From the NCBI GenBank assembly GCA_021648145.1, contig JAKITI010000004.1, positions 63,848-127,847 of the forward strand: a stretch of DNA of 64,000 nt, written 5' to 3'. The notes under the pieces were generated by a model, which saw only the letters and a program-made list of their open reading frames with translations, was not told the DNA's origin and made no database searches. The stretch is from Gammaproteobacteria bacterium. GTDB taxonomy: Bacteria; Pseudomonadota; Gammaproteobacteria; JAADGQ01. This document shows positions 13,795 through 64,000 of the stretch, in pieces. A program made the translations under genes and the position numbers. Every line of letters starts with the position of its first letter. Position 1 is the first letter of the stretch.

Positions 13795-13797
13795 GAT

Positions 13798-22298: not shown

Positions 22299-22301
22299 CT
22301 T

Positions 22302-40907: not shown

Positions 40908-41176
40908 AATTTTTGTGGTTATATTAATTTTTTTCTGCCCTGCTATTTAATAGCATATCCACTGCTAATGATAAAAAATAATTTGTTCTCAATTGGTCTT
41001 GGTTTTTAGAAATCATATTGAGCTAGGTGGGGGTATTTAATTTTGGACAAGGCTAATATATAGTGTTATGCGTTATAAATGGGACTTTGAGAGCATACTC
41101 TTGTGCAAAATCCTAATGATCTCAACAATATATTTCCGTATAATAGCCAGCCAAAAATCAAACTGGAGATTAAAAA

Positions 41177-41386: not shown

Positions 41387-41389
41387 GGC

Positions 41390-45876: not shown

Positions 45877-45883
45877 TATCCGT

Positions 45884-46876
45884 TTAATTGCTGGTGTTAC
45901 GCGAGCCACGAAACCAGGGAATCAACAGTAATCCCAGTCCAATTCCTAGTGGAAAAGAATATATTTCCTGGGGCTGTATTAATGGGTTTTCTTCAATGGG
46001 GAGTGTTTCAAGCCGCTCAATGTCTTTGATAATTTGTTGCATGCTTTCTATATCAATCGCATGGTAATAACGCCCTCCTGTTTCTGTTGCGATGTCTCGT
46101 AGAGTAGTTTCATCCAGTGGCAGTTCAGCCATTTCGGGGGATTCGATAGGGCCACGGGGGAAAGGAACAGCGCCCTGTGAACCGATACCGACGGTATAGA
46201 TCCGTATGCCGTGTTTGTGAGCGAGCAGTGCAGCATCAAGAGGTTGAATGATCCCGGCTGTATTGGTGCCGTCGGTGAATAAAATCAATATTCGATTGGG
46301 ATGTTCGTGGTCTTGCAGGCGCTTCACTGCCAGCATCATGGCGGTACCGAGTGCGGTCTTTTCACCGGCAATACCATTTCTGATCTGCCCAATGAGTGTT
46401 TTCAACAGTCCTAAGTCAGTTGTAATAGGCGTGAGTGTGAAAGCATCATCGGCAAAGATAATCAAGCCTGCACGGTCTCCCTGACGATTGTTTAAGAACT
46501 CAGTCACAACACGTTTCAGCATATCTAGGCGACTGACCTGAGTGTTGTCGATGGTGTAATCAAGTGCGCGCATGGAGCCTGAAAGGTCAATGGCTAACAT
46601 AAAATCACGGCCTTGCCCTTGATGCTCACTGACACTAAACCATTGAGGTCTGCAAAGGGCTGTGATTAATAACATGCAGCCAATAAGCCAAAACCAAGGA
46701 GGTTGTTTATTAACGCTCGCACTGTTTGATAGCTGGCTCAGGAGTGCGGTTTGGGGATGAATGATGGCTGGACGATGAGGTTCTGCTCTGTCTTTTATAA
46801 AACGCATAGAGGCTTGCCATAGTAACCAGGGCAGTGGCAGAGCAAGCAGCCAGAGTGGTGTCGCTAGTTGCAACAT
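45884..46876 (-). CDS. BatA-type von Willebrand factor A domain membrane protein
   Basis: 330 aa with an N-terminal TM helix and a vWA MIDAS motif DLSGSM. Confidence 0.75.
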   Translation of the reverse strand: MLQLATPLWLLALPLPWLLWQASMRFIKDRAEPHRPAIIHPQTALLSQLSNSASVNKQPPWFWLIGCMLLITALCRPQWFSVSEHQGQGRDFMLAIDLSGSMRALDYTIDNTQVSRLDMLKRVVTEFLNNRQGDRAGLIIFADDAFTLTPITTDLGLLKTLIGQIRNGIAGEKTALGTAMMLAVKRLQDHEHPNRILILFTDGTNTAGIIQPLDAALLAHKHGIRIYTVGIGSQGAVPFPRGPIESPEMAELPLDETTLRDIATETGGRYYHAIDIESMQQIIKDIERLETLPIEENPLIQPQEIYSFPLGIGLGLLLIPWFRGSRNTSN

Positions 46877-47101
46877 CTATTTGCTAAAAAAGTTCTGAAT
46901 GACTGCCGCACCGTTCAAGTTTTACCAAACATGTCACGTAATTCATCAAGAGTTACTTTTTCATGTTGTTCATTAAAAGCATTAATGGTTGTTTGGTTTG
47001 GGATTTTTAGTTCAGGGTTTAATTTTTTTCTAACCGTAGCATCTATCGGAGTAGCGACCATGATTATATCTCTTTCAGTAGTTTGCTGGAATCCAAGTGT
47101 A

Positions 47102-47554
47102 CTATATATTGATACGTTCAATTTCATTGCTTTGCAACCACTGCTCGATGGTTTTAAATAGATCAGGGGTGATTTTTTGGTGGCTGTTGTTTTTATAGCG
47201 CAGTCTGTCTAGTTGCTTAACTGTTTTGCACCACTCTTGCTCATTTATTGTCAGCATGGAGGGCGGTGTGGTGGGTAAGTTGGGCAGTTGCCAGTGGTGG
47301 CGTAAGATTGAGGCAAGCCAGTATGCGGTCAATCGATTGTCCAGCTCGCCCGTTTGCCACTGTTTCTGTATTCGTTTAAGTTGGTTTTGTGGTGAAATAG
47401 TGGTGGGCTGACTTTTTCTAAACTTCCAGATAAAGCCACCACAGATAAACAGGAGCCCGATCGTAATCAGCATAATCATGGGCCACCACGTGGGCGCTTC
47501 GGGCGGCACAATATCAGCCATTTGGGCGAGCGATGCTAATGGGTCCATTGCCAC
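47102..47554 (-). CDS. DUF4381-like small membrane protein (Bat-operon component)
   Basis: 150 aa with a single TM helix (WWPMIMLITIGLLFICGGFIW). It sits between the DUF58 and BatA genes, as is typical for these clusters. Confidence 0.5.
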   Translation of the reverse strand: MAMDPLASLAQMADIVPPEAPTWWPMIMLITIGLLFICGGFIWKFRKSQPTTISPQNQLKRIQKQWQTGELDNRLTAYWLASILRHHWQLPNLPTTPPSMLTINEQEWCKTVKQLDRLRYKNNSHQKITPDLFKTIEQWLQSNEIERINI

Positions 47555-48447
47555 TTCTGGAGTTGTTTGAACGTCTCTTGTGCCGTTGATAGCATGTGAT
47601 AAGGGATGGCTGCTTTTTTGAAGCAGGTGAAAAGTTCGCTGCGTCCGAGTGTCATGGCGTGTTCGTATCGCTGGCGTAATTTTTTATCACAGGTATCAAT
47701 CTGGCTGGCTTTTCCCGTGAGTGGGCAGACGATATTCATGGTTCCGATATTTTTCAATTGCTCTTCGGCAGGGTCGGTAATATATATCGCTGCAACCTCT
47801 TGTTGTAAAGCTAGGTGTTGTAATCGCTGTTGAGAGCTTTCAATGAGTTGAACGAAATCACTGATGAAAATGGTGCTGCAAGCGTTTCCACCTAAATGCT
47901 CTATAGTTGTAAATAGTTGCTGCCAAGAACTCTGGTTTTTCGGTGTTGTGGCGGGTTGAAGTGGTTTTGATATGGCTCTTAATAAAGGTAGAAGAGTTTC
48001 ATTCGTTCGGGCGGCTGGGTAAATAGAAACTCCATCTTCAATCACAATGCCTAAAACTTCTTCGCTGTTGGCAATGGCAGAGAAGGCTATAATTGCGGCA
48101 GCACGTGCTGCCACGGTTGCCTTCAGATCAACGGTTGTACCAAACGCCATCGTTTGGCGACGATCGACCACAAGCAGCAATTTACGCTGACGTTCTTCTT
48201 GAAATACCTTAGTGGTGGCTTTGCCACTGCGAGCCGTTGCGCGCCAGTCCAAATGCCGTAAATCATCACCTGCTTGATAAGCCCGAGTATCAACCCAGTC
48301 CATGCCATGACCGCGATAAAGTGACTTGTAACGGCCTGACAATGCGGTTTGTCCACGCGCATGAAGTGGGGTGTTATTCAGCAAACAGCTCCGTAACTGG
48401 CTAAGTTCGCTGGGTGAAATCAGAGGGGGAAGGTTGCTTGCTTTCAT
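47536..48447 (-). CDS. DUF58 protein (MoxR-partner family)
   Basis: 303 aa with the DUF58 hallmark [20 protein letters not shown]. Confidence 0.7.
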
Positions 48448-50903
48448 CTTTATTAGGGCGTATTAATCGGCTCTCATCAAAACCCATAAATTATAGCACT
48501 GTTGAGTATCGCTTGTTCGACTGGCAAAATGGCTGCATCTTATACGTCAGCGGATTGAATATTTTGGCTCAAGCAACTCGAACTAAAACGCAAAAAGAAC
48601 AGGCACCTCTAAGCACTCATATCAGCCGTGCCTTACGTGAGGGCGGTTTTTTGGTGCTGGGGGCTGTTGCACTTTATCTCGCAATTTCTCTTTTTACCTA
48701 TCATTCCAGTGACCCTGGTTTTTTTCGTAATACGATGTATGGTCCTGTCAAAAATACCGGTGGTTTGGTGGGTGCCTGGTTTGCCGATCTGGCTTTTTAT
48801 ACTTTTGGAATATTAGCTTATCTTTTTCCTGTCGTGATTGTTTATTGTGCTTTTGTTTTTTACAAAGGGCGAAAGCATGCGGGTGATAATTGGTGGCGAC
48901 AAGGTTGGGTGCGTAGTGGTGGATTTTTATTGCTATTATTGTCGGGTGCGGCATTGGTTCACCTTCACTTAGCTGGTTTGGGTGGCGTGCTGCCGTTAGA
49001 TGGGGGCGGTATTCTTGGTGCAATGACGGGCTCAACTCTGTTGGGATTATTTAACCTTCTGGGCTCAACACTTATTTTATTCACACTATTTTTGGTTGGG
49101 ATCAGTATTTGTACAGGGCTTTCATGGATTGGTTTGGTGGATGCGACAGGGCGGGTCACATTGAATGGTTTTTCATGGGTTGGACAAAAAAGACAGCGCC
49201 GGAAAATTTTAGCTCGACAAAAACGTGCGTTGAAAAAAGCAGAAAAAGAGAAAAAAATAGCAGAAAAAACGGCAAGAAAAGATGAGAAAAAAGCCGAGAA
49301 GAAGGCTAAAAAACTATTGTCGAAAAAAGCTCATATTGAGCCACTTTTTAAAGGGATTGAAGTCAGTAAACGGGCTGAAAAAGAGCGCCAAAAACCATTG
49401 TTTCATAATGTAGAAGCAGGCACTTTGCCGCCGTTATCATTGCTAGATGATGCGGAACCTCCTAAAAACAGTATCTCCAAAGCAGATCTGGAAACAATGT
49501 CACGCCTGCTGGAAGTTAAACTGAAGGAGTTTAATGTTTCGGTTGAAGTGGTCGCAGTGCACCCTGGGCCGGTGATCACACGTTATGAGCTTAAACTGGC
49601 GGCGGGTGTAAAAGTCAGTCAAATCGCCAATTTATCTAAAGACCTGGCGCGATCATTGTCGGTGATGAGTGTTCGGATTGTCGATGTGATTCCAGGTAAG
49701 CCTGTGGTTGGCGTAGAAATTCCAAATGAGTATCGGGAAATTGTTCGGCTCAGTGAAATTTTAAAATCGACAGTTTACGATAACGCCAGCTCACCCTTGA
49801 CGATGGGGCTGGGGAAAGATATTTCAGGCCAGCCCTTTGTCGCTGATTTAGGAAAAATGCCTCACTTACTCATTGCGGGAACGACTGGTTCCGGTAAGTC
49901 GGTCGGAGTCAATGCCATGATTCTGAGCTTTCTCTATAACGCCACGCCTGAGCAGGTTCGATTGATTATGATCGATCCCAAAATGTTGGAGTTGTCGATC
50001 TATGAGGGAATTCCACATCTGCTGGCCCCCGTTGTCACAGATATGAAAGAAGCCTCCAATGCATTGAAGTGGTGTGTGGGTGAGATGGATCGGCGTTATC
50101 GTTGTATGGCCTCGGTCGGGGTGCGTAATATTGCGGGTTATAATCGTAAGTTAAAAGAGGCAGCTGAAAAGGGTGAGTCGTTCCCTGATCCACTTTTTCA
50201 GTTCACAGAAGGTGTGACCGAGGTTCCTGTGTTAGAGCATCTGCCTTATATTGTCGTGGTCATTGATGAACTTGCAGATATGATGATGGTGGTCGGTAAA
50301 AAGGTTGAAGAGCTGATTGCACGATTGGCGCAAAAGGCTCGGGCGTGTGGTATTCATTTGATTTTGGCAACACAGCGCCCTTCGGTGGATGTTATTACAG
50401 GTCTGATTAAAGCGAATATTCCAGCGCGTATCGGCTTTCAAGTCTCGTCAAAAATTGATTCTCGAACAATTCTTGATCAGATGGGTGCGGAGCAATTGCT
50501 GGGGCATGGCGATATGCTCTATTTGCCTGGCGGAAAAAGCATCCCTGAGCGTATTCATGGAGCATTTGTGGATGATCATGAGGTTCATGCGGTTGTTGAG
50601 TTTTTGAGTCAGACGGGATCCCCTCAATATATCGATGAAATACTTGAAGGCAGTGTTGCGGAAGATATTGCTGCAGCATTGGGTGGGAGCGGTGGTGCAG
50701 AGGAAGATGAGCTGTACGATGCCGCGCTGCAAATTGTGACTGAGACGCGTAAAGCATCGGTCTCTGGTGTCCAGCGACGACTGAAAATTGGTTACAATCG
50801 AGCGGCTCGTCTGGTTGAAGCGATGGAGGCGGCAGGGGTTGTGAGTTCTGTGCAATCGAATGGTCAGCGTGAAGTGTTGGCACCGCCACCAATTGATGGA
50901 TAA
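48414..50903 (+). CDS. ftsK: DNA translocase FtsK
   Basis: It has an N-terminal 4-TM domain, a long Lys/Glu-rich linker, and the motor domain (Walker [21 protein letters not shown]) and gamma domain. The true start is probably TTG at 48555 or 48564, which would avoid overlap with the divergent DUF58 gene. Confidence 0.9.
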
Positions 50904-51190
50904 AAAAGTGCTAATGGATGGTGTCTAAAGCAACAGGGGTAGGTTTCACTTTGAGTCTTTTTTGTTTAAGTCTATATTATTAGCTGTTAAGCTCCATGTT
51001 CTTTTTGATTCAAGTAGTTTATTCAGCAATGAGTTTGCCTGAACTTGGAAGTGATCTATAGGCTTTACTCAATATATCTTATAGATTTTTTCAATTAGTC
51101 AAATGAGTTGGGGGTATGTAGTATCGGTTCCGAATTATATTTCAACGCCAAAACACAATTCTAAACAAAAACTCGTAAGGAGAAAAATTT

Positions 51191-52606
51191 ATGGCAAATC
51201 AAACTTTTGATGCTGGTGTGCAGGATTACAAGCTAACTTATTGGACGCCTGATTATACGCCGCTAGATACAGATTTATTGGCATGTTTTAAGGTTGTAGA
51301 GCAAGAAGGTGTTCCACGTGAAGAAGCAGCAGCAGCAGTAGCAGCAGAAAGCTCAACAGGCACATGGACAACTGTATGGACTGATTTGTTATCAGACATG
51401 GAGTATTACAAAGGACGTGCCTACAGAATCGAAGAAGTTCCTGGTGATAAGGAAGCTTTTTATGTATTCATCGCTTATCCACTGGATCTGTTTGAAGAAG
51501 GTTCTGTTGTAAACGTACTGACTTCTTTGGTTGGTAACGTATTCGGATTTAAAGCAATTCGTTCTTTAAGACTTGAAGATATCCGTTTCCCAGTTGCATT
51601 TGTTAAAACTTGCATGGGTCCTCCAAGTGGTATCCAGGTTGAACGCGACAAATTAAATAAATACGGTCGCCCAATGTTGGGTTGTACTATCAAGCCTAAA
51701 TTAGGTCTGTCTGCCAAGAATTACGGTCGTGCAGTTTATGAGTGTCTTCGTGGTGGTCTTGATTTCACTAAAGATGATGAAAACATTAACTGTCAGCCTT
51801 TCATGCGCTGGAGAAATCGTTTTGAATTCGTTGCTGAAGCGGTTCATAAAGCACAAGCCGAAACGGGTGAGGTTAAAGGTCATTATCTGAACGTTACTGC
51901 GGCAGATTGTGAAGCGATGATTGAACGTGCAGAATTTGCTAAAGAATTGGGTATGCCAATCATTATGCATGACTTCTTGACCGCTGGTTTTAGTGCGAAT
52001 ACTTCGCTGGCTAAATGGTGTCGTAAAAATGGCATGTTGTTACATATCCATCGCGCAATGCATGCAGTAATTGACCGTAATCCTCGTCACGGCATTCATT
52101 TTCGTGTTCTTGTTAAATGTTTACGTTTGTCTGGTGGTGATCATCTGCATACTGGAACCGTTGTTGGTAAGTTGGAAGGTGATCGTGCGACAACTTTGGG
52201 TTTTGTTGACTTGTTGCGTGAAGATTTCATTCCAGAAGATCGTGCTCGTGGAATCTTCTTTGATCAAGACTGGGCCTCTATGCCTGGTGTATTCGCAGTA
52301 GCATCGGGTGGTATTCATGTATGGCACATGCCTGCACTGTTAAATATCTTTGGTGACGACTCTGTTCTACAGTTTGGTGGTGGAACACAAGGTCATCCAG
52401 ATGGAAATGCAGCGGGTGCAGCAGCAAACCGTGTTGCATTGGAAGCTTGTGTTAAAGCTCGTAACGAAGGTCGTGATTTAGAAAAAGAAGGTGGTGACAT
52501 CTTACGTGAGGCGGCTCAGCACAGTAAGGAACTTGCTGTTGCTCTTGAGACTTGGAAAGAGATCAAGTTTGAGTTTGATACTGTTGACAAGCTAGACGTA
52601 CGTTAA
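51191..52606 (+). CDS. cbbL: RuBisCO large subunit, form I (carboxysomal type)
   Basis: 471 aa containing [21 protein letters not shown], including the carbamylated-Lys motif KDDE. Confidence 0.95.
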
Positions 52607-52653
52607 TTTTTTATTAGTTAATATATATATAAGCATTTAATAGGAGTTCAATT

Positions 52654-52998
52654 ATGAGCCAACAAATTCAAGAAGATTACCGCACAAAGTACACCCTGGA
52701 GACCTTTTCTTTTTTGCCTCCATTAACTTCTGATGAGATCTATAACCAGATCGTTTACATTATTAATCAAGGCTGGACACCTGCTCTTGAGCATGAAACA
52801 CCTGAGTCAGCTTCTGCCCATTACTGGGGTATGTGGAAACTACCATTCTTCGGTATGCGTGATCCTAATGAGGTTTTGCAAGAAATTGAGGCGTGCCGTC
52901 AACAATACCCAGATCACCTGATCAGAGTGTTGGGATATGATAGCTATACTCAATGTCAAGGTCACAACTTTGTGGTTTATCGCCCTAGAGGCATGTAG
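52654..52998 (+). CDS. cbbS: RuBisCO small subunit
   Basis: 114 aa containing WTPALEHE and MWKLPFFG. Confidence 0.9.
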
Positions 52999-53031
52999 TC
53001 ATCAGCAAAGAAAGAGTATGGAGCCTTTAAT

Positions 53032-54993
53032 ATGAGTAATTCTATAAATGACGTGAGCGGACGCTCGCAGTCAAAGGCACGTCGTAAGTCAAAGCTTTCT
53101 GGTGGAAAATCAGGTGTAGCTAGAGCGACAAGAGTCCCTAGAAAAAAATCTGAGCCAGTCATTTTGGCTTCAGGTTCTAGTGCTTCTGTTGTAGCTGCGC
53201 CTGTTAAGTCTGAATTCACTTCAGCTTCTACAAAGCGTCAATCGCCTTCTCTGCAATCCATTACAGTTGCTGAAGGGCGTGCGATGGCGAAGCAAAAAAG
53301 AAAGCGGATGATTCGTGGTAAAACTGGGTCATCTCAAACAAATACGCAAGGTTCTTTGAAAACGAGAAAAAAGCCTGATGAGATGATTGAGCTTCGTTCT
53401 ACTACTACAAGTAAAAGCGCTGCTTTGAAGGGTAAAAAAGTTTCTCCTGCTATTAATAAATCGCAGGTTAAATCTGAATCATCAAAGGGTCGCAATATGT
53501 CAAAAGCCAGGCGTAAAGCTCTTGTCAAAGGCAAAGCTGGTCAGTCCTCTTTTAGTAGTCAGTCTAGCTCTGTTGCCAAGATGGCTAATCCCGGCGCTTC
53601 GGTAAGAGATGTGGCTCGAGTGGTAAGGGCAGAGCGCTGCAGCAAAGGCAAGACAGTTTGTTCTGCTGTTACAAAGTCTTCTAGGCGACAAAAGCGTAAA
53701 AGTGTAAATGATGCTCCAGAAAAAGTTTCTTTATCTGAAACTTTGAGTGGTAGCGTTGTTTCTGGCGTGCATGTGGGTCAAGGCCAGTTAACTGGCGCAG
53801 AGAAAGGTGCTTGCAAAAATGTGAGTGGTACTGAGTATTTGGGAATGGAAGAGTTTGTAACGCACTGCTCTACTGTTCCTGAAGCATCACCTTCAAAAGT
53901 TTCTTTTACTCAAACAAGTAAAGGAAGAACGGTGAGTGGTACTGAGTTTGGGCAAGACAAATCTGTCACGGGTGATAGAGCGGGGCTATGCTCTTCAGTG
54001 ACGGGTACAGAGTACCTTCCTGCGGATCAAGGTGATTTGTTTTGTGGTGCTGATCAAGCGTTAACGAAGTCTGACACAGGTTCTATGATTCCACGTCTAA
54101 TGAAGCCGAGTTGTACGCCTAAGTCAAAAGCTGTTCCTGCTAAAGTGGTTATTTCAACGACAATGGCTGGGAATATGACGACTGGCACACAAGTTGGAAG
54201 AGGCTTGTCCGTGACTGGTGATGAACGTGGTTACTGTCAAGCAATTACTGGTATTGGTTATCAAGGTAAAGAGGAGGTTTCGGCTGTTTGTGAAACGAAA
54301 TCTCCTGTTTCCCCGCCTGCTAAAGTATTAGTTTCTGGTACGGTGGGTGGTCAAATTGTGACGGGCGATCGTAGTGGCAGCGTAAGTGGAATGACCGGTG
54401 CAGAAATTGGAAGCTGTCAGCCTGTGAGCGGAACTGCTTATGTAGGCACAGAGTTTGCCTCAGATAGTTGTTCAGTAGAAGCTCAGGCATCTATCGCTCA
54501 GCGTTCAAAACAAGCAGCGGTTCAAAGTAGCCAGCCTATGACGGGTGTTCGGCCCGGTATGATGGGTCTAACAGGGGCTCAAAAAGGCGCTTGTGAAGTT
54601 GTTTCTGGAACGCATTATCAATCTGCTTCTGAAATGAGTCAGTTGTGTGAGGGCAGTGGTGCTGCAACACTTGGTGAGTCTGATTATCCTATGATAATTG
54701 GTCAAGCGACTGCAGCAACTCTTGCGGGTAGTGTTACAGCGCCTTCGGTTTCACCACCGAGTGCTATCACCGGTGATGGTTGGGAAAAAGGTAATAAAGT
54801 GACGGGTACTGATGGTGCTTGGGCTGCAAAGCGTAATCCTTCTATCCGAGGGGTTCAAGGGCAGTCTCCAATGAGCGCATCTAACTTTAGACCGCACTCA
54901 ATGCCTGAGGTACCTCAGAGTCCAATTACAGGTTCCTCTGGAAATACCACGGAAGGGAGTAAAGTGACCCTTTCTGGTGGCGCAAGAGCGTAA
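53032..54993 (+). CDS. csoS2: alpha-carboxysome scaffold protein CsoS2
   Basis: 653 aa and Lys/Arg/Ser/Gly-rich. It has repeated VTG.E, G.....VSGT.Y and C-containing repeats (GAEKGACKNVSGTEYLG, DRAGLCSSVTGTEYL, ERGYCQAITGIGYQG, EIGSCQPVSGTAYVG). It sits between cbbS and csoSCA. Confidence 0.8.
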   Translation: MSNSINDVSGRSQSKARRKSKLSGGKSGVARATRVPRKKSEPVILASGSSASVVAAPVKSEFTSASTKRQSPSLQSITVAEGRAMAKQKRKRMIRGKTGSSQTNTQGSLKTRKKPDEMIELRSTTTSKSAALKGKKVSPAINKSQVKSESSKGRNMSKARRKALVKGKAGQSSFSSQSSSVAKMANPGASVRDVARVVRAERCSKGKTVCSAVTKSSRRQKRKSVNDAPEKVSLSETLSGSVVSGVHVGQGQLTGAEKGACKNVSGTEYLGMEEFVTHCSTVPEASPSKVSFTQTSKGRTVSGTEFGQDKSVTGDRAGLCSSVTGTEYLPADQGDLFCGADQALTKSDTGSMIPRLMKPSCTPKSKAVPAKVVISTTMAGNMTTGTQVGRGLSVTGDERGYCQAITGIGYQGKEEVSAVCETKSPVSPPAKVLVSGTVGGQIVTGDRSGSVSGMTGAEIGSCQPVSGTAYVGTEFASDSCSVEAQASIAQRSKQAAVQSSQPMTGVRPGMMGLTGAQKGACEVVSGTHYQSASEMSQLCEGSGAATLGESDYPMIIGQATAATLAGSVTAPSVSPPSAITGDGWEKGNKVTGTDGAWAAKRNPSIRGVQGQSPMSASNFRPHSMPEVPQSPITGSSGNTTEGSKVTLSGGARA

Positions 54994-56538
54994 TTGGAAA
55001 AAGTGATGTTAAGCACAAGCTATCGCAAAAGCTCTATGTTCTCTAGATCGAAGGCTAAGCCGCCAGCTCTTGGTATGCGTCCTATAAAAAGGACCTTTAA
55101 GGCAGGTGGCAGTCTTGATGTGGCTATGAAGATGGAGAGTTTTTCGAGCTTTAATAGCAACCCTCTTGTTAGGGTTGAGCAAAATAATACTTTTCATGAT
55201 TATGAAGTTCGCATCAAAGCTGGCTTTGATGGTGTTGAGTCTGTTGTTCAGCAGTTGGTTGTAAAACAAAAATGTCTAGACTTTCTGAAAACTGCTTATT
55301 TACTAATCCAGGAAAAGTTAAATCTTTCACTCAGTAATGAGCAGTTAAACATTCTTAGTAAAGATCAGTTTGACAGTAATGATTTTTATGCGGAATGCAT
55401 TTTTGCGCAGTTTATGAGAATGTCAGAAGATTTTTTTAAAAATGACCCGTTATGTGGGCAAAATAAAATTGAAGCAGAAAATGTTTTCAAAAAATTGGGT
55501 TTTCATGCGGTTGGAATTGCGGCATGTTCTGATGGACGTTTAGCTCATTTTTCTACCTATGTATTGCGATTACCCTACTCGTTACCTCGAAGGAAGTTTC
55601 ATGCTGGAACTTTATTTGATGTCAGTGAGAGTGTACGTAATTGGGTCTTTATTGAGCACGGGCGTTTCAGAGAAGGAATACCTAACTCAGCTGAAGAAGC
55701 AACTAAATATTTAAAAATTGCCGTATATCATTTCTCTAAGTCTGACCCAGAGCATCAAGGTTGTGCCGCGCACGGTAGTGATGATAGCAAGGCCGCGACA
55801 AGTGCTTTGTCAAAGTTAAATGATTTTAAACAAGCAATTGAAAATAGATTTGGGTGTGGGTCAACCATTAAGACATTATTAATCGGTATAAATACAGATG
55901 ATGATAGCTTGAAGATTCACGTCCCTAATGCGCATGGAAAAATGTGTTTGCAACGTTTTGTTGAGACGGATGCGCTTTTTTTACAAACAATCGGGCTCAA
56001 TGCCGAGCAGGCTAAGTTAAGCATTAAAAAATCTGTTGGTGTATGTGGTGGAAAAAAGGTAGCGAACTCTTCAGATTCGATGAACGCTTTAATCTGTTGG
56101 TTAATTGAGAATAATTTTTCCCAGATAGAGTACGTTAAAAGCTATGAAAATGGTTTCTATCATGATACGGGTCATGCAGAGCGTTTTATCGGTATTGGTA
56201 GTGGATTTGAAGAGGTTCAACTTCGTAATTTAAGTTACTACAGTTTCTTGAATACAGTTGAAGAGGGTTTGAATGATGTCAATATTGGCATCAAAATTTT
56301 TACGGGATTGAATTTAAGTAAAGGTTTACCAATTCCTATTATTATTCGCTCTGATTATGATGGCAAAGTGCCTGGCTCAAAAAATAGAGCTCAGGAGAAG
56401 GTTTTTCGTATCGAGCAAGCATTACATGAGCGCTACCAAGAGTTGTCTATGCAAGGAAAATTAAAGTCTATGTGTACTTTAAAAGACAACACTGGTCACA
56501 AACCAGCTGAAAGAGTTTCAAACTTGGTAGAGCAATAA
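54994..56538 (+). CDS. csoSCA: carboxysomal beta-class carbonic anhydrase CsoSCA (CsoS3)
   Basis: 514 aa in the canonical position after csoS2. The start codon is uncertain: TTG at 54994, GTG at 55003 or ATG at 55006. Confidence 0.75.
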   Translation: MEKVMLSTSYRKSSMFSRSKAKPPALGMRPIKRTFKAGGSLDVAMKMESFSSFNSNPLVRVEQNNTFHDYEVRIKAGFDGVESVVQQLVVKQKCLDFLKTAYLLIQEKLNLSLSNEQLNILSKDQFDSNDFYAECIFAQFMRMSEDFFKNDPLCGQNKIEAENVFKKLGFHAVGIAACSDGRLAHFSTYVLRLPYSLPRRKFHAGTLFDVSESVRNWVFIEHGRFREGIPNSAEEATKYLKIAVYHFSKSDPEHQGCAAHGSDDSKAATSALSKLNDFKQAIENRFGCGSTIKTLLIGINTDDDSLKIHVPNAHGKMCLQRFVETDALFLQTIGLNAEQAKLSIKKSVGVCGGKKVANSSDSMNALICWLIENNFSQIEYVKSYENGFYHDTGHAERFIGIGSGFEEVQLRNLSYYSFLNTVEEGLNDVNIGIKIFTGLNLSKGLPIPIIIRSDYDGKVPGSKNRAQEKVFRIEQALHERYQELSMQGKLKSMCTLKDNTGHKPAERVSNLVEQ

Positions 56539-56559
56539 CTATTTGGGATCTTTTAGTTT

Positions 56560-56808
56560 ATGAAAATTTTAAAAGTTGATAAGACACTGGTTTCGACAAA
56601 TAGAATTTCAAGCATGGATCACAAGCCTTTGTTGGTTGTGCGTGAGAAAGATGGTGGAACACCACAAGTGGCTGTTGACCCTGTAGGCTGTAAACCAGGT
56701 GATTGGGTGCTTTGTGTTGGTAGTTCTGCTGCAAGGGATGCCACGGGTATAAAAGCTTACCCGAGTGACTTAACCATTGTTGGTATTATCGATAAGTGGG
56801 AGGTGTGA
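56560..56808 (+). CDS. csoS4A: carboxysome vertex protein CsoS4A (EutN/CcmL family)
   Basis: 82 aa. MKILKVDKTLVSTNRI...KPGDWVLCVGSSAARDA...IVGIID is the EutN/CcmL pentamer fold signature. Confidence 0.85.
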   Translation: MKILKVDKTLVSTNRISSMDHKPLLVVREKDGGTPQVAVDPVGCKPGDWVLCVGSSAARDATGIKAYPSDLTIVGIIDKWEV

Positions 56809-56814
56809 TTTCTT

Positions 56815-57060
56815 ATGGAAATACACCAGGTTAAGCAAAAATTAATTGTAACGAGCAGGTTGGATGGCTTAGGTCACTTGCCTATTAAAGTGCTGCAAAG
56901 TGTATCGGGTGCAAGACTTGTTGCACTTGATCCAATCGGTGTTAAAGCAGGGGACTGGGTGTTTACAATTGCAAATTCAGCGGCCAGAACTGCCGCAGGT
57001 GATGACAAAATTTTAACGGACTTAACAGTCGCTGGAATTATTGATAACTGGCAATCATAA
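56815..57060 (+). CDS. csoS4B: carboxysome vertex protein CsoS4B (EutN/CcmL family)
   Basis: 81 aa and a paralog of csoS4A (KAGDWVFTIANSAARTA...VAGIID). Confidence 0.85.
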   Translation: MEIHQVKQKLIVTSRLDGLGHLPIKVLQSVSGARLVALDPIGVKAGDWVFTIANSAARTAAGDDKILTDLTVAGIIDNWQS

Positions 57061-57087
57061 ATAAAATTTAAACTTAGGAGAAAAACC

Positions 57088-57366
57088 ATGAGCACAGAAT
57101 ACGGTATTGCTTTAGGAATGATAGAGACACGCGGGTTAGTTCCTGCCATTGAAGCAGCAGATGCGATGACTAAAGCAGCAGAAGTTCGCCTGGTCAGTCG
57201 TGAATTTGTAGGCGGTGGTTATGTCACTGTATTGGTTCGTGGTGAAACGGGCGCAGTCAATGCCGCAGTTCGTGCGGGCGCTGATGCCTGTGAGCGTGTT
57301 GGAGATGGCCTTGTTGCTGCCCACATCATTGCGCGTCCTCATAATGAATTAGGGTCTATGCTATAA
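57088..57366 (+). CDS. csoS1: carboxysome shell hexamer CsoS1 (BMC domain)
   Basis: 92 aa with the canonical BMC sequence ALGMIETRGLVPAIEAADAMTKAAEVRLV. Confidence 0.95.
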   Translation: MSTEYGIALGMIETRGLVPAIEAADAMTKAAEVRLVSREFVGGGYVTVLVRGETGAVNAAVRAGADACERVGDGLVAAHIIARPHNELGSML

Positions 57367-57436
57367 ATAGCAAAGTCTATTATTATAATAATTAGAGTAC
57401 TTTAGAGGGGAAAACCCTCTACGAAAGGAAAAAATT

Positions 57437-57985
57437 ATGAGTTATCGCCCATTTATGCAAGGCAATGCTATGTCTGGTGCAGCTGGTTTTCCTAGATTTG
57501 ATAGTTCTACACAGCTAGAGAGTAATTCTAAAATACTAGGGTATTTAGGACGTTCTTTAAGCTTGGAATTTACCTCTGGTCAGCATTATTTGGCCCAGGC
57601 TTCTTTGGCTAAGTTTCGTAATGAGGCTCATTATGCGCAAGGTTTTGTGACCTTGGCGAATGAAGAGTTTCAGCACGCCAACTTAATTACTGATCGCATC
57701 ATTACTCATGGTGCTTTACCTGCGGGTAGCGTTCTAAGCCCTTCGACTTATTCTGGCTCTATCGTTGATGCGTTGAAAAGTTGTGAGGCAAGAGAAATTG
57801 CTTTAATCCAGCTTTATGGTGAGGCAGCTCAGTATTGTGCAAACATGGGAGCAGCAGAAGATAGCTCTTTATTTAACAGGTTGTTTGAAGAAGAGCAGGC
57901 TCAGTTGGTTAGAATTAGAGGCTGGATCAAAGAATATTATCATGTGATGAATGTAAACCCTGCTATGACTAGGAGTTTTGCATGA
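57437..57985 (+). CDS. ferritin-like (bacterioferritin-like) protein of alpha-carboxysome loci
   Basis: 182 aa with the ferritin-like helix pattern E..HY......L..EE.QH. This is the position where bfr-like genes are found in cso operons. Confidence 0.65.
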   Translation: MSYRPFMQGNAMSGAAGFPRFDSSTQLESNSKILGYLGRSLSLEFTSGQHYLAQASLAKFRNEAHYAQGFVTLANEEFQHANLITDRIITHGALPAGSVLSPSTYSGSIVDALKSCEAREIALIQLYGEAAQYCANMGAAEDSSLFNRLFEEEQAQLVRIRGWIKEYYHVMNVNPAMTRSFA

Positions 57986-58257
57986 AAAGTAACTGGAGGA
58001 AGAAGGAAAAGCCTCCTTTATTAGAAGCTAGATTTGAGTTTACAGAATTTAGGGTTTTGATGTCTTTTTTAGATTCCTTAGCAGAGGTTGCTGAAGAAAT
58101 GGATCACCACCCTAATATCAGTTTTAGCCGTCAGCATGTATCAGTTGTGATTTATTCAAAGACGGAAACACTTAATGATACTGATTTTAAACTCGCAGAA
58201 GAGATAGATGTGAGGCATAAACAGTCGATAGACTTTTCAAAAGGAGTTCTTGAATGA
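57982..58257 (+). CDS. pterin-4a-carbinolamine dehydratase-like protein (alpha-carboxysome RuBisCO assembly factor acRAF-like)
   Basis: 91 aa with PCD/DCoH-family core EEMDHHPNISFSRQHVSVVIYS. It overlaps its neighbours by 4 nt on each side. Confidence 0.7.
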   Translation: MKSNWRKKEKPPLLEARFEFTEFRVLMSFLDSLAEVAEEMDHHPNISFSRQHVSVVIYSKTETLNDTDFKLAEEIDVRHKQSIDFSKGVLE

Positions 58258-58598
58258 GCAAGCTAGATGATAAAAAAAAACAAGCTGTTATTAATCAAAA
58301 ATCTGTACAAAAAGCAGTTAAACCTATCAAAACAACAAAAAAATCTGTAATAAAAAAAATAAATCCGGCTGTAAAAGCTATGCCTAAAAAAGATAATGTT
58401 AAGTTGGTAGCCAGTAAGTCAGTAGTTGTTGTTAAGCCATCCTCAGCTAATGCTCAAAAAAAACCAGTGTCAGCGAAGTCTTCACCTGCTAATACTCAAA
58501 AAAAATCAACAAAAACAAAGAAGTTAATAAGCAAGCCAATGAAGCATATTGCAGATCAAATTAAAGAGTTACCTAGCAAAAGGGTTTGGCCTGACTAG
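58254..58598 (+). CDS. Lys-rich intrinsically disordered protein ending in WPD, a candidate alpha-type McdB (carboxysome positioning adaptor)
   Basis: 114 aa, low-complexity and K/S/A/V-rich (KKSVIKKINPAVKAMPKKDNVKL...KKSTKTKKLISKP). The C-terminus reads ...LPSKRVWPD*. It is translationally coupled to the acRAF-like gene. Confidence 0.45.
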   Translation: MSKLDDKKKQAVINQKSVQKAVKPIKTTKKSVIKKINPAVKAMPKKDNVKLVASKSVVVVKPSSANAQKKPVSAKSSPANTQKKSTKTKKLISKPMKHIADQIKELPSKRVWPD

Positions 58599-58630
58599 TT
58601 AAATTATTAGTGCTTGGTTCAAAATTAATG

Positions 58631-58655
58631 GCGGGAATGTTACCCCGCTTTTTTT
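58631..58655 (+). terminator. weak rho-independent terminator after the cso operon
   Basis: GCGGG-aatgttac-CCCGC followed by TTTTTTT. Confidence 0.4.
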
Positions 58656-58854
58656 ATGTGAACTTGCTTTGTAGCGAAGTTGGTATTTATTTGAAAAAAT
58701 AGCAACAACCTATTGACTACTCTCTATACATGAGAGTTGTATTACCAACTTCTATTCTAGTACTATTTTTCGTATCATACTCGCACTAAAAATAAATGTT
58801 CTATACACAGAGGCGAATACACCTCTCTTAACAGTATAGAAAAAGGTATAAATT

Positions 58855-59841
58855 ATGGGATTAGACAGTTTATTAATACCAGCAGTTCTATTTTTTGCAT
58901 TAGGTGCTTTTGCAAAATTTATTAATTCGGATCTCAAATTCCCTGAAGGGATGACAAAAGGGATTGGTCTATACTTATTAATGGCGATTGGTTTAAAAGG
59001 TGGTGTTGCATTAAGTGATGCTGATTTTGGCTTGGCAATTTCCAGTATTATTTGGGGCGTGATTCTTGGTTTCCTATTACCGTTGATTGGGTATGCACTT
59101 TTAAGGTTCAGAAATAAAATAAATCCTTTTGATGCAGCCGCTATTGCAGCACACTATGGTTCTGTCAGTGCAGCTACTTTTTTAACTGCCGTTGCTTTCT
59201 TAGAAGTTTCTGGTGTGGAATATGAAAGCTACCCAATTATTATGATGGTTATTATGGAAACGCCAGCCATTATTATTGGTCTTGTATTAGCGGCTCTAGC
59301 TCGAAAAAAATTAGCAGCAGCTTCTGGAGAGGCTATCCCTAAAACAGAGTGGAGCCCCTTACTTAAAGAGGCATTTACTAATGGTAGCGTGATTGTTTTG
59401 ATAGGTGCTTTAGTGATCGGTACTGTGGCAACGCCAGAGGCGATGGCTAAAGTGACTCCATTTACGAGTGATATATTCATGGGTGTGCTTTGCTTGTTTT
59501 TATTGGATATGGGCATGGAAGCAGCCAAAAAAGCGGGTACGCTTAGGAAGGTGGGTGGCGTTCTAGTTGCATTTGGTGTTGTGATGCCGCTTATTGGTGG
59601 TACGATTGGTGTGGTTGTTGGGGTCTCTTTTCTGGGGTTTTCGGTCGGAGGCGCTTTCTTGTTAGCCATATTGTCTGCCAGTGCATCGTATATTGCCGTA
59701 CCTCCAGTGATGCGTTACGGGGTGCCTGAAGCAAACTCATCGTATTACCTAACCTTATCATTGGGGATTACTTTCCCATTTAATGTCGTAATCGGAATAC
59801 CATTGTTTTATCAAATGGCGATTATGTACTCTGCACTCTAA
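58855..59841 (+). CDS. sbtA: SbtA-family (DUF897) putative Na+-dependent bicarbonate transporter
   Basis: 328 aa. Blocks co-linear with cyanobacterial SbtA include IGLKGGVAL, HYGSVSAATFLTAVAFLEVS, LLDMGMEAAKKAGTLRKV and SASASYIAVPPVMRYGVPEANSSYYL. Confidence 0.75.
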   Translation: MGLDSLLIPAVLFFALGAFAKFINSDLKFPEGMTKGIGLYLLMAIGLKGGVALSDADFGLAISSIIWGVILGFLLPLIGYALLRFRNKINPFDAAAIAAHYGSVSAATFLTAVAFLEVSGVEYESYPIIMMVIMETPAIIIGLVLAALARKKLAAASGEAIPKTEWSPLLKEAFTNGSVIVLIGALVIGTVATPEAMAKVTPFTSDIFMGVLCLFLLDMGMEAAKKAGTLRKVGGVLVAFGVVMPLIGGTIGVVVGVSFLGFSVGGAFLLAILSASASYIAVPPVMRYGVPEANSSYYLTLSLGITFPFNVVIGIPLFYQMAIMYSAL

Positions 59842-59855
59842 AAAGGAGCTAAATT

Positions 59856-60179
59856 ATGCCTGCTACAATGTGCCCTGGAAAATCTGTACACATCATTGTT
59901 AATGCAACCTTTGAGAATGAACTGGTTAGAGTATTAGATAAAGTCGGTGTCACTGGTTATACGCAGCTAGATGCTAGAGGAAATGGCTATTCTGGTGTTC
60001 AAGATGGTCATTCAGAAGGTGAGACAAATGTGATGTTTATTGTCTTGGTCACCTCTGAAGTCGCAGAAGTATTGATTGAAAGTCTGATTGATTATATCAA
60101 GCGTGGATACCCTATTGTTTCTTATACTAGCGATGTTGAAGTTTTGACTACTAATAAGTATGGCAAGCCGACAATATAG
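59856..60179 (+). CDS. sbtB: PII-like signalling protein, SbtB-type
   Basis: 107 aa with a PII-fold length and pattern, located immediately after sbtA. Confidence 0.65.
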   Translation: MPATMCPGKSVHIIVNATFENELVRVLDKVGVTGYTQLDARGNGYSGVQDGHSEGETNVMFIVLVTSEVAEVLIESLIDYIKRGYPIVSYTSDVEVLTTNKYGKPTI

Positions 60180-60188
60180 GATATTCAG

Positions 60189-60809
60189 ATGACACCCTTA
60201 GTTCTTGCTACCGGAAACCCTCATAAGGCGATTGAAATTGAATCAATGCTTGCCCCGTATAAGCTTGACCTCCATCGCCAGACTGAATTTTTTTCACAAG
60301 AGGTTGAAGAGGATGGGCTAAGTTATCTTGAAAATGCTTTAAAGAAAGCAAGATATGCAAGCCAAAGAACAGGGCTGCCTGCGCTTGCGGATGATTCAGG
60401 AATAGAGGTTGATATGCTTAAGGGGAGGCCTGGAATATATTCAGCACGTTACTCTGAAGGCTTTAATGGTTTGCATGCATCGGACAGACAGAACAATGAA
60501 ATGTTATTACATGAGTTACAAGGAGCCATTTCTTCTCAAAGATACGCCTGTTATATTTGCGTGATGGTATTCATTCGCCATGCTTTAGATCCTAACCCTG
60601 TCATAGGTTTAGGGAAATGGTGTGGTGAAGTTTTGTCTCATCCTAAAACCTTGTGCGGTGTTGGTTACGATCCTATTATGTGGTTTAGTGAATACAATAA
60701 AACGGGTTCAGAAATATCTATGGAGCTTAAGAATCAAGTGAGCCATAGAGCGAAAGCGCTACAGAGTCTTTTGCAAAATTTAAGACAGGAAGACTCATGG
60801 TCGAATTAA
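60189..60809 (+). CDS. rdgB: dITP/XTP pyrophosphatase (Ham1/RdgB family)
   Basis: 206 aa, co-linear with E. coli RdgB: [48 protein letters not shown]. Confidence 0.85.
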
Positions 60810-61402
60810 GAACCTATGTTTTTTTAGATTCATTACAACCTCAACTAGCTTCTTATATGGGAACTGTTTCTATGGGGTTCTTGCCCGTCCCTGGTGATTC
60901 CTGTTTATGGATAGAGGTCGCTCCTGGGATGGCGGTTCACCGTGTTTCAGATATTGCTTTGAAAGCGTCTAATGCCAGGTTGGGCCAACAAGTTGTTGAG
61001 CGAGCTTATGGCTCAATGGTGATTCATCATCGTGACCAAAGCGATGTATTAGAGTCTGGAAATCACATTCTGCGCTACTTAAAGACCGAAGATGCTGATC
61101 GTCCATCTTGCCTGGTCAAATGGAATGAAGTTATTTGTAATATTACTGTAGATCATGCAACCTTAATTAATCGAGATAATCGTCGAGGTTCTATGGTTTT
61201 ACCTGGCCAAAGTATTTTCATTATGGAAACCGAGCCTGCCGGGTATATCATTTATGCTGCAAATGAAGCTGAAAAATCTTCAAACATCACCTTGGTAGAA
61301 GCAAAAGCAGTGGGTGCTTTCGGTCGATTGATTATGTCAGGTAAAGAAGCTGATATTATGGAAGCCTCTAGAGCTGCAATGCTTGCTTTGCAAAGACTAT
61401 AG
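60797..61402 (+). CDS. tandem-BMC-domain shell protein, CsoS1D-like (tentative)
   Basis: 201 aa with an internal duplication: [36 protein letters not shown] versus [34 protein letters not shown]. It ends with a BMC-like [31 protein letters not shown]. Confidence 0.45.
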
Positions 61403-61441
61403 TCTTGTATAAGGAACCTCAGACTTAATCAGAGGTTAAAT

Positions 61442-62392
61442 ATGAATGAACAAGATACCTCCTCAAATCTTGCTGGATACCTGATTCGGCATGCTTCACT
61501 TCGTCAGATTCAAATTTTTGAAGCCGTCGCTAGAAATCTTAGCTTTACCAATGCAGCAAGGGAATTGTTTTTGACCCAGCCAACCGTATCGGCGCAGGTC
61601 AAAAGTTTTGGTGAATCAATTGAAATGCCTCTGTACGAACAAGTGGGAAGAAAAATTTACTTGACGGAAGTGGGGCAGCATGTTGCTTCCAGTTGTAGGG
61701 AAATTATACTTCAGCTCTCTAACCTCGAAATTTTATTAGATGATTTTAGAGGTATGACTCGTGGTAGTTTGAAAATTGGTATTGTTTCAACAGCAAAATA
61801 CTTTACTCCAATCGCTTTGGGAAAGTTTATTAAAAAGCACCCTGATATTGATTTAAGTCTAAAAATAACCAACCGAGACAATTTAGTTAAACGTATTCAT
61901 GATAATCTGGATGACTTGTATATTCTGGGGCAAGTTCCTGATACTAAGCTTGATTTAGAGGTTATTCCTTTTGCTGCCAACCCACTGGTTGTCATTGCGA
62001 ATAAAAATAATAAACTGGTGGGTAAAAAAGTTTCCTTAGAAGAGTTATCTAAACAGCCTTTTATTATGAGGGAAGAAGGTTCGGGTATTCGTTCTGTGGT
62101 AGAGAATATGTTTTCAAAAATGGATTTAAAGGTCAATGAAAGGGTGACTCTGGAAACAAATGAGGCAATTAAACATTGTGTTGTTGGTGACTTGGGTGTT
62201 GCGGTGGTTTCAAAGCAAACGTTATACCTTGAAGGTGATGCTAGCCCTGTAGTGATATTAGATGTCGAAGGGTTTCCGATCAATAAAGAGTGGAATATCG
62301 TGTACCTTAGGGGAAAGGAGCTCTCTTTGCTTGCGAAAGAATTTTTAGCCTTTTTGAAAAATAAAGGGACTGAGTACCTTCAATTAGATTAA
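61442..62392 (+). CDS. LysR-family transcriptional regulator (possible CbbR-like regulator of the CCM locus)
   Basis: 316 aa with an N-terminal HTH (LRQIQIFEAVARNLSFTNAARELFLTQPTVSAQVKSFGE) and a LysR substrate-binding domain. Confidence 0.8.
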   Translation: MNEQDTSSNLAGYLIRHASLRQIQIFEAVARNLSFTNAARELFLTQPTVSAQVKSFGESIEMPLYEQVGRKIYLTEVGQHVASSCREIILQLSNLEILLDDFRGMTRGSLKIGIVSTAKYFTPIALGKFIKKHPDIDLSLKITNRDNLVKRIHDNLDDLYILGQVPDTKLDLEVIPFAANPLVVIANKNNKLVGKKVSLEELSKQPFIMREEGSGIRSVVENMFSKMDLKVNERVTLETNEAIKHCVVGDLGVAVVSKQTLYLEGDASPVVILDVEGFPINKEWNIVYLRGKELSLLAKEFLAFLKNKGTEYLQLD

Positions 62393-62418
62393 TCTCCTCC
62401 AGTTTGTAGTGTTGTTGA

Positions 62419-63069
62419 GTGAAATATATGAATAATAAAACGATGAATAAAATAGCTGCAATTTTTTTTCTTTTTATTTTAAGCTCAGTCTCAGTGATGG
62501 CGGACGATGGCGCTGAGCGACTCTCTACTTTTCTTAAAAAATCACAAACCTTGCAAGCAGTATTTGAACAAACCGTGTTCGATGCGGATGGTGGGGTAAG
62601 CCAGCAAGCAAAAGGGCTGTTTTATCTTTCAAGACCGGGCCGTTTTCGTTGGGATTATACCGAGCCTTATAAGCAGCTGATTGTGGCGGATGGAAAAAAT
62701 ATCTGGCTGTATGATGATGATTTGGAACAGGTGACGGTTAAATCACAACAGAGTGGTTTAGGTGACCTTCCTGCGTTGTTACTTGCTGGTGGGGATCAAT
62801 CACTGGAAAAAAACTTTAAAATTAAATCACTGGGTTCGAGCGACTCTATCGAATGGCTGGAGCTATTGCCTAATACAGAAGAGCGCAGTTTTGAACGTGT
62901 GCGTTTAGGTTTGAAAGGTTCTGTTTTACAGGAGATGGAGCTGCTCGATGCATTCAATCAAACCACTCGACTCGTCTTCAGTGATATTAAACTGGGAGTT
63001 AAATTATCGCCATCACTTTTTAAATTTACTCCGCCCAAAGGTGTGGATGTTGTGGGTGATGTTGAGTAG
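62419..63069 (+). CDS. lolA: outer-membrane lipoprotein carrier protein LolA
   Basis: 216 aa with a signal peptide and the LolA motif FYLSRPGRFRWDYTEPYKQLIVADGKNIWLYD. Confidence 0.85.
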   Translation: MKYMNNKTMNKIAAIFFLFILSSVSVMADDGAERLSTFLKKSQTLQAVFEQTVFDADGGVSQQAKGLFYLSRPGRFRWDYTEPYKQLIVADGKNIWLYDDDLEQVTVKSQQSGLGDLPALLLAGGDQSLEKNFKIKSLGSSDSIEWLELLPNTEERSFERVRLGLKGSVLQEMELLDAFNQTTRLVFSDIKLGVKLSPSLFKFTPPKGVDVVGDVE

Positions 63070-64000
63070 TGATTAGCGATCCCTTCCGGCCTTTGGCTGA
63101 TCGCATGCGCCCTCAGGTGCTGGGTGATTTTTATGGACAAAGCCATCTGTTAGCGGCTAATAAACCGCTGAAATTATCGGTTGAAACCGGACGTTTGCAC
63201 TCCATGATTTTCTGGGGGCCGCCCGGTACAGGAAAAACAACACTGGCACGAATGATTGCTCGTTGCGCTGATGTTCATATGATTGAGATATCAGCGGTCA
63301 TGGCTGGAGTGAAAGAAGTACGCGGCGCGGTTGAGCAAGCCAAAAAAATTCGTCAAAAGGAAAATAGAAGCACATTGCTGTTTGTTGATGAGGTTCATCG
63401 TTTTAACAAATCTCAGCAAGATGCTTTTTTGCACAGCGTGGAAGATGGCACGCTGATGTTCATTGGAGCGACCACGGAAAACCCATCATTTGAACTCAAT
63501 AATGCGTTACTTTCACGGGCGCGTGTTTATGTTTTAAAGTCTTTACAATTACAAGAAATCATTCAGGTGCTCAAGCGGGCACTACACGACTCTGAGCGAG
63601 GTTTGGGTTCATTGTCTCTTGATATTGAAGAGGCTCAGCTTGAACGCATTGCAACCGCCGCGGATGGTGATGCAAGGCGTAGCTTGAATTTTCTGGATAT
63701 CGTCGCTGATCTTGCAGAAAAAAAAGGTGACCGGAATGTAGTGAGCGATGCTTTGCTCGATGAAGTTTTATCGGGGGGTACTCGCCGTTTTGATAACAAA
63801 GGTGAAGCATTTTACGACCAGATTTCAGCATTGCATAAGTCAGTGCGAGGCTCATCACCCGATGCAGCACTCTATTGGTTTTGCCGAATGCTGGATGGGG
63901 GCTGTGATCCGCTCTATCTGGCACGACGCGTGGTTCGGATTGCGAGTGAAGATATTGGCAATGCTGATCCACGTGCTTTGCAGATGGCGCTGAGTGCATG
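63070..64000 (+). CDS. rarA: replication-associated recombination protein A (AAA+), 3'-truncated by the window end
   Basis: It has a GTG start adjacent to the lolA stop. The translation begins ...RPQVLGDFYGQSHLL...MIFWGPPGTGKTTLARMIA...LLFVDEVHRFNKSQQDAFL. This ORF is not in the track because it is open-ended. Confidence 0.85.

Follow-up and report, generated by a model that had tools for sequence, protein, structure and literature searches.

The 64,000-nt stretch analysed here (the window; contig JAKITI010000004.1 of GCA_021648145.1) carries, between ftsK and lolA–rarA, a module of 15 genes that encodes an alpha-carboxysome CO2-concentrating mechanism (CCM) and that was probably inserted there as a single block. 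Genes were called from a map of open reading frames (ORFs) together with NCBIfam and Pfam profile searches, and all genes and features described below from ftsK to rarA lie on the plus strand. The module spans 11.5 kb (50905–62406), its ends being the points at which blastn homology to the closest island-less relative, the metagenome-assembled genome (MAG) S141_38 (WFXF01; L004), is lost and returns, so that the breakpoints fall at 50904/50905 and 62406/62407. To the left stands ftsK (48414–50903; NCBIfam FtsK, 2.2e-240; Pfam FtsK_4TM, alpha, FtsK_SpoIIIE and gamma), 82.7% identical to L004 at the nucleotide level until 50904; to the right, L004 homology is back at 62407 with a conserved leader of ~22 nt and lolA (62407–63069; TIGR00547, 2.8e-71), followed by rarA/mgsA (63069–64000; AAA/RarA families, with the Pfam domain MgsA_C in full-length orthologues), which runs off the window. 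An earlier note, written from the sequence alone, had listed a set of CCM genes intercalated between ftsK and lolA; the ORF map and profile searches confirmed that list almost exactly, and the blastn boundaries lie within 12 nt of those it proposed.

The module opens with carboxysomal RuBisCO, encoded by cbbL (51191–52606; NF003252, 2.1e-239, 794.8 bits, above cut-off) and cbbS (52654–52998; the identical product in L001 matches Pfam RuBisCO_small). These are followed by the scaffold gene csoS2 (53032–54993; NF050161, 2.5e-221, at 737 bits below the equivalog cut-off of 850; PF12288 in homologues), the carboxysomal carbonic anhydrase gene csoSCA (54994–56538; TIGR02701, 8.6e-174, 578.6 bits, above cut-off), the vertex protein genes csoS4A (56560–56808) and csoS4B (56815–57060), matched above cut-off by the TIGR02703/TIGR02704 pair, and a single copy of csoS1, the major shell hexamer of the bacterial microcompartment BMC-H type (57088–57366; NF053791, 184.5 bits, above cut-off). 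Next come a ferritin-like (bfr-like) satellite gene that is kept in all contexts of the module (57437–57985; Pfam Ferritin, 1.7e-07), a pterin-4a-carbinolamine-dehydratase-like gene of the acRAF type (57982–58257; Pfam Pterin_4a, 5.5e-14) and an ORF that we assign to alpha-McdB (58254–58598). Beyond a terminator lie sbtA, for a bicarbonate transporter (58855–59841; Pfam Sbt_1, PF05982, 1.4e-110), a gene for an SbtB-type P-II protein (59856–60179; PF00543, 9.4e-15), an RdgB/Ham1-family gene (60189–60809; TIGR00042, 153.5 bits, above cut-off), a csoS1D-type gene for a tandem-BMC shell protein (BMC-T; 60797–61402; NF053796 CcmP, 1.3e-68, below cut-off; Pfam BMC, with CsoS1D_N on orthologues) and, last, a CbbR-like LysR-family regulator gene (61442–62392; NF045990 CbbR, 5.5e-58). 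Every sequence test of alpha-carboxysome membership was positive, with RuBisCO, CsoS2, CsoSCA and shell proteins of the BMC-H, BMC-P and BMC-T types all encoded, and the adjacent Sbt_1 permease and P-II-like protein, in that order, form an SbtA/SbtB pair by sequence. The module is thus predicted to encode together an enzyme, its shell, assembly factors, a positioning factor, a bicarbonate pump and a regulator.

Two of these assignments draw on the literature. The alpha-McdB product is a K-rich, low-complexity protein of 114 aa, read from its translation; it had no Pfam or NCBIfam match, neither library holding a hidden Markov model for McdB. Alpha-McdB proteins all end in V(I)WPD, and are further recognised by disorder, low hydrophobicity, biased composition and a place in or near a cso operon, where orphan copies have been described (PMC8359340). 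The call of an McdB-like gene holds because this ORF ends in KRVWPD; profile searches found no ParA-like (mcdA) gene in the module or the rest of the window. Ham1-family genes are known satellites of alpha-carboxysome loci (PMC4207490, PMC12918739), and for that reason we regard rdgB as a member of the locus rather than a trapped housekeeping gene. The lone csoS1 of the window may be a collapsed assembly repeat rather than biology: the relatives carry two to three near-identical tandem copies, at which their contigs break (L085 14062–14616; L093 3–491; L088 14060–14728; L091 14106–14693).

We compared the junction across relatives. In E. coli K-12, ftsK-lolA-rarA-serS are directly adjacent, and a wider survey of 66 more distant, diverse loci placed the end of ftsK within 400 bp of lolA in 32, in agreement with the earlier statement that ftsK, lolA and rarA are neighbours in E. 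coli and many gammaproteobacteria. Within the lineage itself, the outgroup L092 (GCA_054016095.1; 84.6%, 70% and 88% identical to the window in FtsK, LolA and GltX) has a gap of only 9 bp between ftsK and lolA with no remnant of the module, in the order VWA-DUF4381-DUF58/ftsK-lolA-rarA-crcB, which shares its left neighbourhood with the window. Because this site is empty, and because the two genes adjoin in E. coli and in nearly half of the distant loci, ftsK–lolA adjacency is the ancestral state and the cso insertion the derived one. L004 presents a third condition: blastn aligns it to window positions 45877–50904 and 62407–64000 at 81–86% nucleotide identity, and its site is filled by 1079 bp, with one small ORF and a gene of the Zeta_toxin family, in place of the 11.5 kb. 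In a further relative (L005, GCA_964468225.1; LolA 83%), ftsK is gone altogether from the 10 kb that precede lolA. Within this clade, the site shows unusual plasticity.

The filled arrangement recurs. The ftsK–cbbL junction on the left was found again in L085 and in L087 (GCA_054016435.1), two independent assemblies, and the lysR–lolA junction on the right in four, from different samples (L093–L096); L085 and L093 are two contigs of one genome. Both junctions therefore recur in independent assemblies, so that an assembly artefact is ruled out as their source. A chimera of metagenome assembly or binning accordingly has a negligible chance of being the explanation, even though the source is evidently a MAG and the tandem csoS1 copies do break or collapse the assemblies of relatives; no repeat occurs at either junction. 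The neighbourhood at large is an insertion hot spot: in L004 the zeta-toxin module (8879–9957) sits between ftsK and lolA and an AAA_14/DUF4143 gene (5340–6464) before ftsK, L085 carries a YafQ/RelB pair in the VWA–DUF4381 interval (3487–4001), and L087 a radical-SAM gene before ftsK (3853–5394).

Related genomes carry the same module of 14–15 genes, in the same order, in no fewer than three further chromosomal contexts. It lies between tkt-gap-pgk-pyk-fba and bioD-purC in L088 and L089 (GCA_027072875.1 and GCA_015487495.1), between priA-argS-SPOR and parA-speA, without lysR, in L091 (GCA_054047165.1), and directly after dnaE in L097 (GCA_027031605.1), with CsoS2 identities to the window of 70%, 68% and 81–84%, respectively. 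A more distant locus, L098 (CsoS2 55%), has the core operon only. Upstream of cbbL, ~135 bp are common to all contexts and ~230 bp to the ftsK and dnaE contexts; some 135–190 bp of this upstream sequence, like the sbtA leader, move together with the module. At the other end, homology between contexts stops a few nucleotides from the lysR stop. In L091 (18719–19982), the gene after the module lies on the other strand and encodes a ParA-family partition ATPase (NF041546, above cut-off) that could act as McdA to the McdB of this module. In L097, csoS2 (3291–5252) is split into ORFs of 167 aa and 455 aa, by a frameshift or an assembly error.

The cassette carries its own regulatory DNA, since conservation across contexts extends to the region upstream of cbbL, the 58630 terminator and the leader of sbtA. 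The first of these regions (50962–51190) was delimited by aligning six sequences that represent four genomic contexts: conservation begins at ~50962 where the module follows ftsK or dnaE, and at ~51055 when all six are considered. The region includes conserved TCTATAG (51055–51061) and TTATAGA (51079–51085) elements, ~35–75 nt upstream of a putative weak promoter (–35 TAGTCA at 51096, a 17-nt spacer and –10 TAGTAT at 51119, with AGGAG as ribosome-binding site). LysR-type activators usually bind at such a position upstream of a promoter, and position and conservation point to the TCTATAG...TTATAGA pair as the candidate site at which the module's LysR would act. The earlier note had suggested looking for CbbR-type T-N11-A sites in 50904–51190; 58 were present against 62 ± 7 in shuffled sequence, a chance level that makes the count uninformative.

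The module divides into two units. Unit 1, from cbbL to mcdB, ends at a strong intrinsic terminator (58630–58657; GGCGGGAATGTTACCCCGC followed by a T-run), found by a terminator scan and conserved in the alignment of relatives; unit 2 comprises sbtA-sbtB-ham1-csoS1D-lysR. A second promoter presumably lies within the conserved sbtA upstream region (58658–58854), which is made up of blocks common to the window, L093, L088 and L091. Across these four genomic contexts, the ~200 nt upstream of sbtA hold conserved blocks such as TCTCTATACATGAGAGTTGTATTACCAACTTCTATTCTAG; no Rfam family matched this leader at gathering score, and it may act as a second region for regulator binding or as an as yet unrecognised leader element. 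At the end of the module, the terminator scan found no terminator between lysR and lolA, and lolA-rarA, ancestrally coupled to ftsK, are probably served today by read-through from unit 2 or by a promoter that lies in lysR. The lolA start lies 26–35 nt past lysR, with in-frame candidates at GTG 62419, ATG 62428 and ATG 62443, and the database form of the protein has 213 aa. With the rarA start corrected to 63069, its GTG shares 1 nt (G) with the lolA TAG stop, an overlap implying that lolA and rarA may be translationally coupled.

The regulator itself has CbbR as its best NCBIfam match, at 196 bits against a cut-off of 450, and many other LysR families match it too; it is 90% identical in L088, where it holds the same relative position. 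In cso loci, a LysR gene usually stands immediately upstream of cbbL and divergent from it (PMC4207490). The earlier note had called the distal, co-directional lysR of the window unusual, and it does depart from that arrangement. Within its own locus family, however, the position is normal: the ham1-csoS1D-lysR tail, distal and co-directional, is kept in L088 and L093 and occurs in metagenomic cso loci L104–L114 (CsoS1D 78–84% and LysR 68–76% identical), with dabB-dabA following lysR in L108. Since it is retained in every module context that has a LysR gene and in these wider loci, the placement is a trait of the locus family and no consequence of the insertion.

We then asked how the divergence and composition of the module compare with those of its flanks. 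GC content at third codon positions (GC3) was 0.322 in module genes versus 0.401 in host genes (Mann–Whitney p = 4e-6). Between the window and L085/L093, synonymous divergence (dS) was 0.190 in the module and 0.182 in the flanks, and because the two are equal, module and flanks have been inherited together since that split. Between the window and L087, module dS was 0.44 (0.39–0.50) and flank dS 0.80 (0.71–0.90), with values at four-fold sites of 0.29 and 0.65. This difference forms a step at the ftsK/cbbL boundary, where a proxy for synonymous differences fell from 0.33 over the last 75 ftsK codons to 0.22–0.23 across cbbL, csoS2 and csoSCA; a search for a homologous-recombination tract in the 3′ end of ftsK between these two genomes detected none. 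The pattern is suggestive of a module that reached the window and L087 lineages, or was exchanged between them, after they had diverged. Between window ftsK (48414–50903) and its L085 counterpart (5509–7857), synonymous differences stand at 0.06 over the first 250 codons and reach 0.18 over the last 250, a gradient that suggests a recombination mosaic between very close genomes.

Taken together, these comparisons make it likely, in our judgement, that 50905–62406 is a self-contained alpha-carboxysome CCM module that entered the very short ftsK–lolA spacer in a single block, in a small sub-clade within a hydrothermal lineage of uncultured gammaproteobacteria. The earlier note had proposed that the CCM was acquired as a unit at a housekeeping junction and had recommended inspecting that junction in relatives; both the 9-bp site of L092 and the toxin-bearing site of L004, along with cso loci sited elsewhere in L088/L089, L091 and L097, support the proposal. 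The cassette would move by recombination, without an enzyme encoded by the element itself, and from a position between two highly conserved genes it could then spread among related strains.

Several observations weigh against this interpretation. None of the 15 module ORFs is an integrase, transposase or recombinase; the only Rfam matches at gathering threshold in the window are three tRNAs, all at 15–20 kb and none in or next to the module; and neither target-site duplications, att-like direct repeats nor terminal inverted repeats rose above chance at the module ends. Set beside a classical integrative island, the module shows the absence from the site in relatives and the deviating GC3, and lacks the integrase, att sites and repeats. 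The divergence signal also has a potential confounder: codon bias is moderately stronger in the module (effective number of codons, ENC, 46 versus 54), and together with rate heterogeneity at synonymous sites it could contribute to the lower module dS, yet csoSCA equals ftsK in ENC and still shows the lower dS. In addition, the window with L085, L087 and L004 form a trichotomy (118/84/108 informative quartet sites), and for L004 it is equally possible that the module was lost or was never present. The relatives compared are all MAGs or metagenome contigs. Finally, the hosts of L088, L091 and L097 are not tied to the window clade by housekeeping genes, which could leave room for relocation within genomes. 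Other potential vehicles gave little: a scan of viral contigs with CsoS2 returned no relatives, and a plasmid search only distant CsoS2 (33–37%) on Nitrobacter and Thiodictyon plasmids. A duplicated 3′ end of ftsK upstream of lolA was also sought, and the candidate scored at the shuffle mean.

Relocation within genomes would have the module inherited vertically throughout the lineage and shifted only by rearrangements, with no transfer between cells. The identity ladders are roughly parallel, at 96, 84, 70 and 68% for CsoS2 and 96, 90, 85 and 70% for LolA; the window–L085/L093 comparison, with dS equal in module and flanks, fits as well, and the L088 location after tkt-gap-pgk-pyk-fba could be an older cbb-operon site. 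This account is nonetheless at odds with the window–L087 comparison, in which module dS reaches only about half the flank value and changes in a step at the boundary, with the L004 site that has no module, and with the shifted GC3; moreover, moving the block precisely into a spacer of 9 bp would still require some recombination event. We consider relocation alone unlikely, though with enough in its favour to be taken seriously.

Less probable again is that the ftsK–lolA site was the ancestral location, with cso already there in the ancestor of the clade, deleted precisely in L092 and replaced by the toxin module in L004. The trichotomy permits a loss in L004, and ~25 nt of lolA leader are common to the window and L004 and not present in L092, so that the ancestor of the first two may already have had an insert. 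Against these stand the ftsK–lolA adjacency widespread outside the clade, the bare 9 bp of L092, the different module locations of L088, L091 and L097, and a window–L087 module divergence younger than that of the flanks, which leave secondary loss with a small chance of being right.

Several known systems can be compared with the module. In gene order, the closest are the Hydrogenovibrio/Thiomicrorhabdus-type cso loci, read from metagenomic loci L104–L114, which share cbbL-cbbS-csoS2-csoSCA-csoS4A-csoS4B-csoS1, the bfr-like and pterin-dehydratase-like genes, ham1, csoS1D and a co-directional lysR; the nearest named CsoS2 matches, at 45–49% identity, come from Thiomicrorhabdus, Hydrogenovibrio and Thiosulfativibrio. 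Unlike those loci, the window has SbtA/SbtB within the module instead of DAB after lysR, a single csoS1, a CsoS2 below the equivalog cut-off and host housekeeping genes that are not allied to that group. The cso and CCM operons of Halothiobacillus neapolitanus resemble the window in combining carboxysome genes, acRAF, csoS1D, an inorganic carbon pump and accessory genes in two neighbouring operons, but comprise ~20 genes with DAB pumps, cbbOQ and mcdA, whereas the 11.5-kb module has SbtAB and neither cbbOQ nor mcdA (PMC7714395).

Transfer of whole carboxysome operons by horizontal gene transfer has been documented, to alpha-cyanobacteria and Paulinella (PMC1904183), and a selfish-operon argument has been made for microcompartment loci (PMC4207490). 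Plasmid-borne cso loci in Nitrobacter hamburgensis X14 and Ca. Thiodictyon syntrophicum likewise present, as the window does, a complete locus as a transferable unit. Compared with these transferred and plasmid operons, the evidence here consists of an empty site and several chromosomal contexts within one narrow lineage, with neither deep phylogenetic incongruence nor a plasmid.

A different kind of parallel is offered by replacement islands between conserved genes, such as pneumococcal cps (dexB/aliA) and O-antigen loci (galF/gnd), which have variable cargo at a fixed site, no mobility genes, and divergence of cargo decoupled from that of the flanks. The window site is similar in holding cso, a toxin module or nothing; it differs in that no recombination tract reaching into ftsK was detected and that the same cso cargo also occurs at unrelated sites. 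The locus is a new and unusually well-documented instance of a known phenomenon, whole-operon carboxysome transfer being already established, and it opens no new kind of biology.

As to the host, a genome scan with LolA returned only two near relatives (91% and 83%). Protein identities run 100/96/90/85/70% for LolA and 98/92/92/91/88% for GltX before dropping to at most 54% and 73%, respectively, and the best named matches of the two proteins are Methylophaga, Methylocaldum, Kaarinaea, Methylomarinovum and Sulfuricaulis. The sequences of the host turn up repeatedly, a Southwest Indian Ridge metagenome being among the samples. Since identities collapse outside this small uncultured clade and the named matches lie elsewhere, the host is not recognisable as a member of the Thiomicrospira group, a membership that the earlier note had implied; only the module resembles the loci of that group. 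On housekeeping sequence, the host is an uncultured vent gammaproteobacterium of a small clade, not demonstrably allied to Thiomicrospira.

Elsewhere, the window holds zwf-gnd-pgi (238–4414), amino-acid and dicarboxylate symporters and polysaccharide lyases, a gene complement that suggests a mixotrophic lifestyle. Two LytS/LytTR two-component pairs, paralogous to each other, and a tandem of two sodium:dicarboxylate symporter genes (21582–24110; 36996–39469; 39648–42700) are also present; alongside zwf-gnd-pgi, they hint that this carboxysome-bearing organism uses organic substrates. The interval 4700–15300 has low GC (0.34–0.37 versus ~0.44; GC3 0.26–0.34) and carries two polysaccharide lyases, four glycosyltransferases, an IS1-family transposase fragment (8884–9369) and, at its end, a tRNA gene on the minus strand (15220–15303); it has the look of a polysaccharide island of its own, foreign in composition.

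A more far-reaching version of block insertion is that the module is a minimal, self-sufficient 15-gene CCM cassette circulating among strains of a probably mixotrophic vent lineage, conferring low-CO2 autotrophy in one step, entering several sites by recombination without an element-encoded enzyme and, at ftsK–lolA, spreading between lineages that had already diverged; we put this forward tentatively, as possible but still doubtful. The H. neapolitanus CCM has been reconstituted in E. coli with ~20 genes (PMC7714395). More compact than that set, and equipped with an SbtA/SbtB pump and its own regulator, the module offers CCM engineering a candidate design. With its site seen empty, occupied by other cargo and occupied by the module, the locus provides a natural example of a whole CCM as one portable block, and it bears on how low-CO2 autotrophy is gained and lost in vent bacteria.

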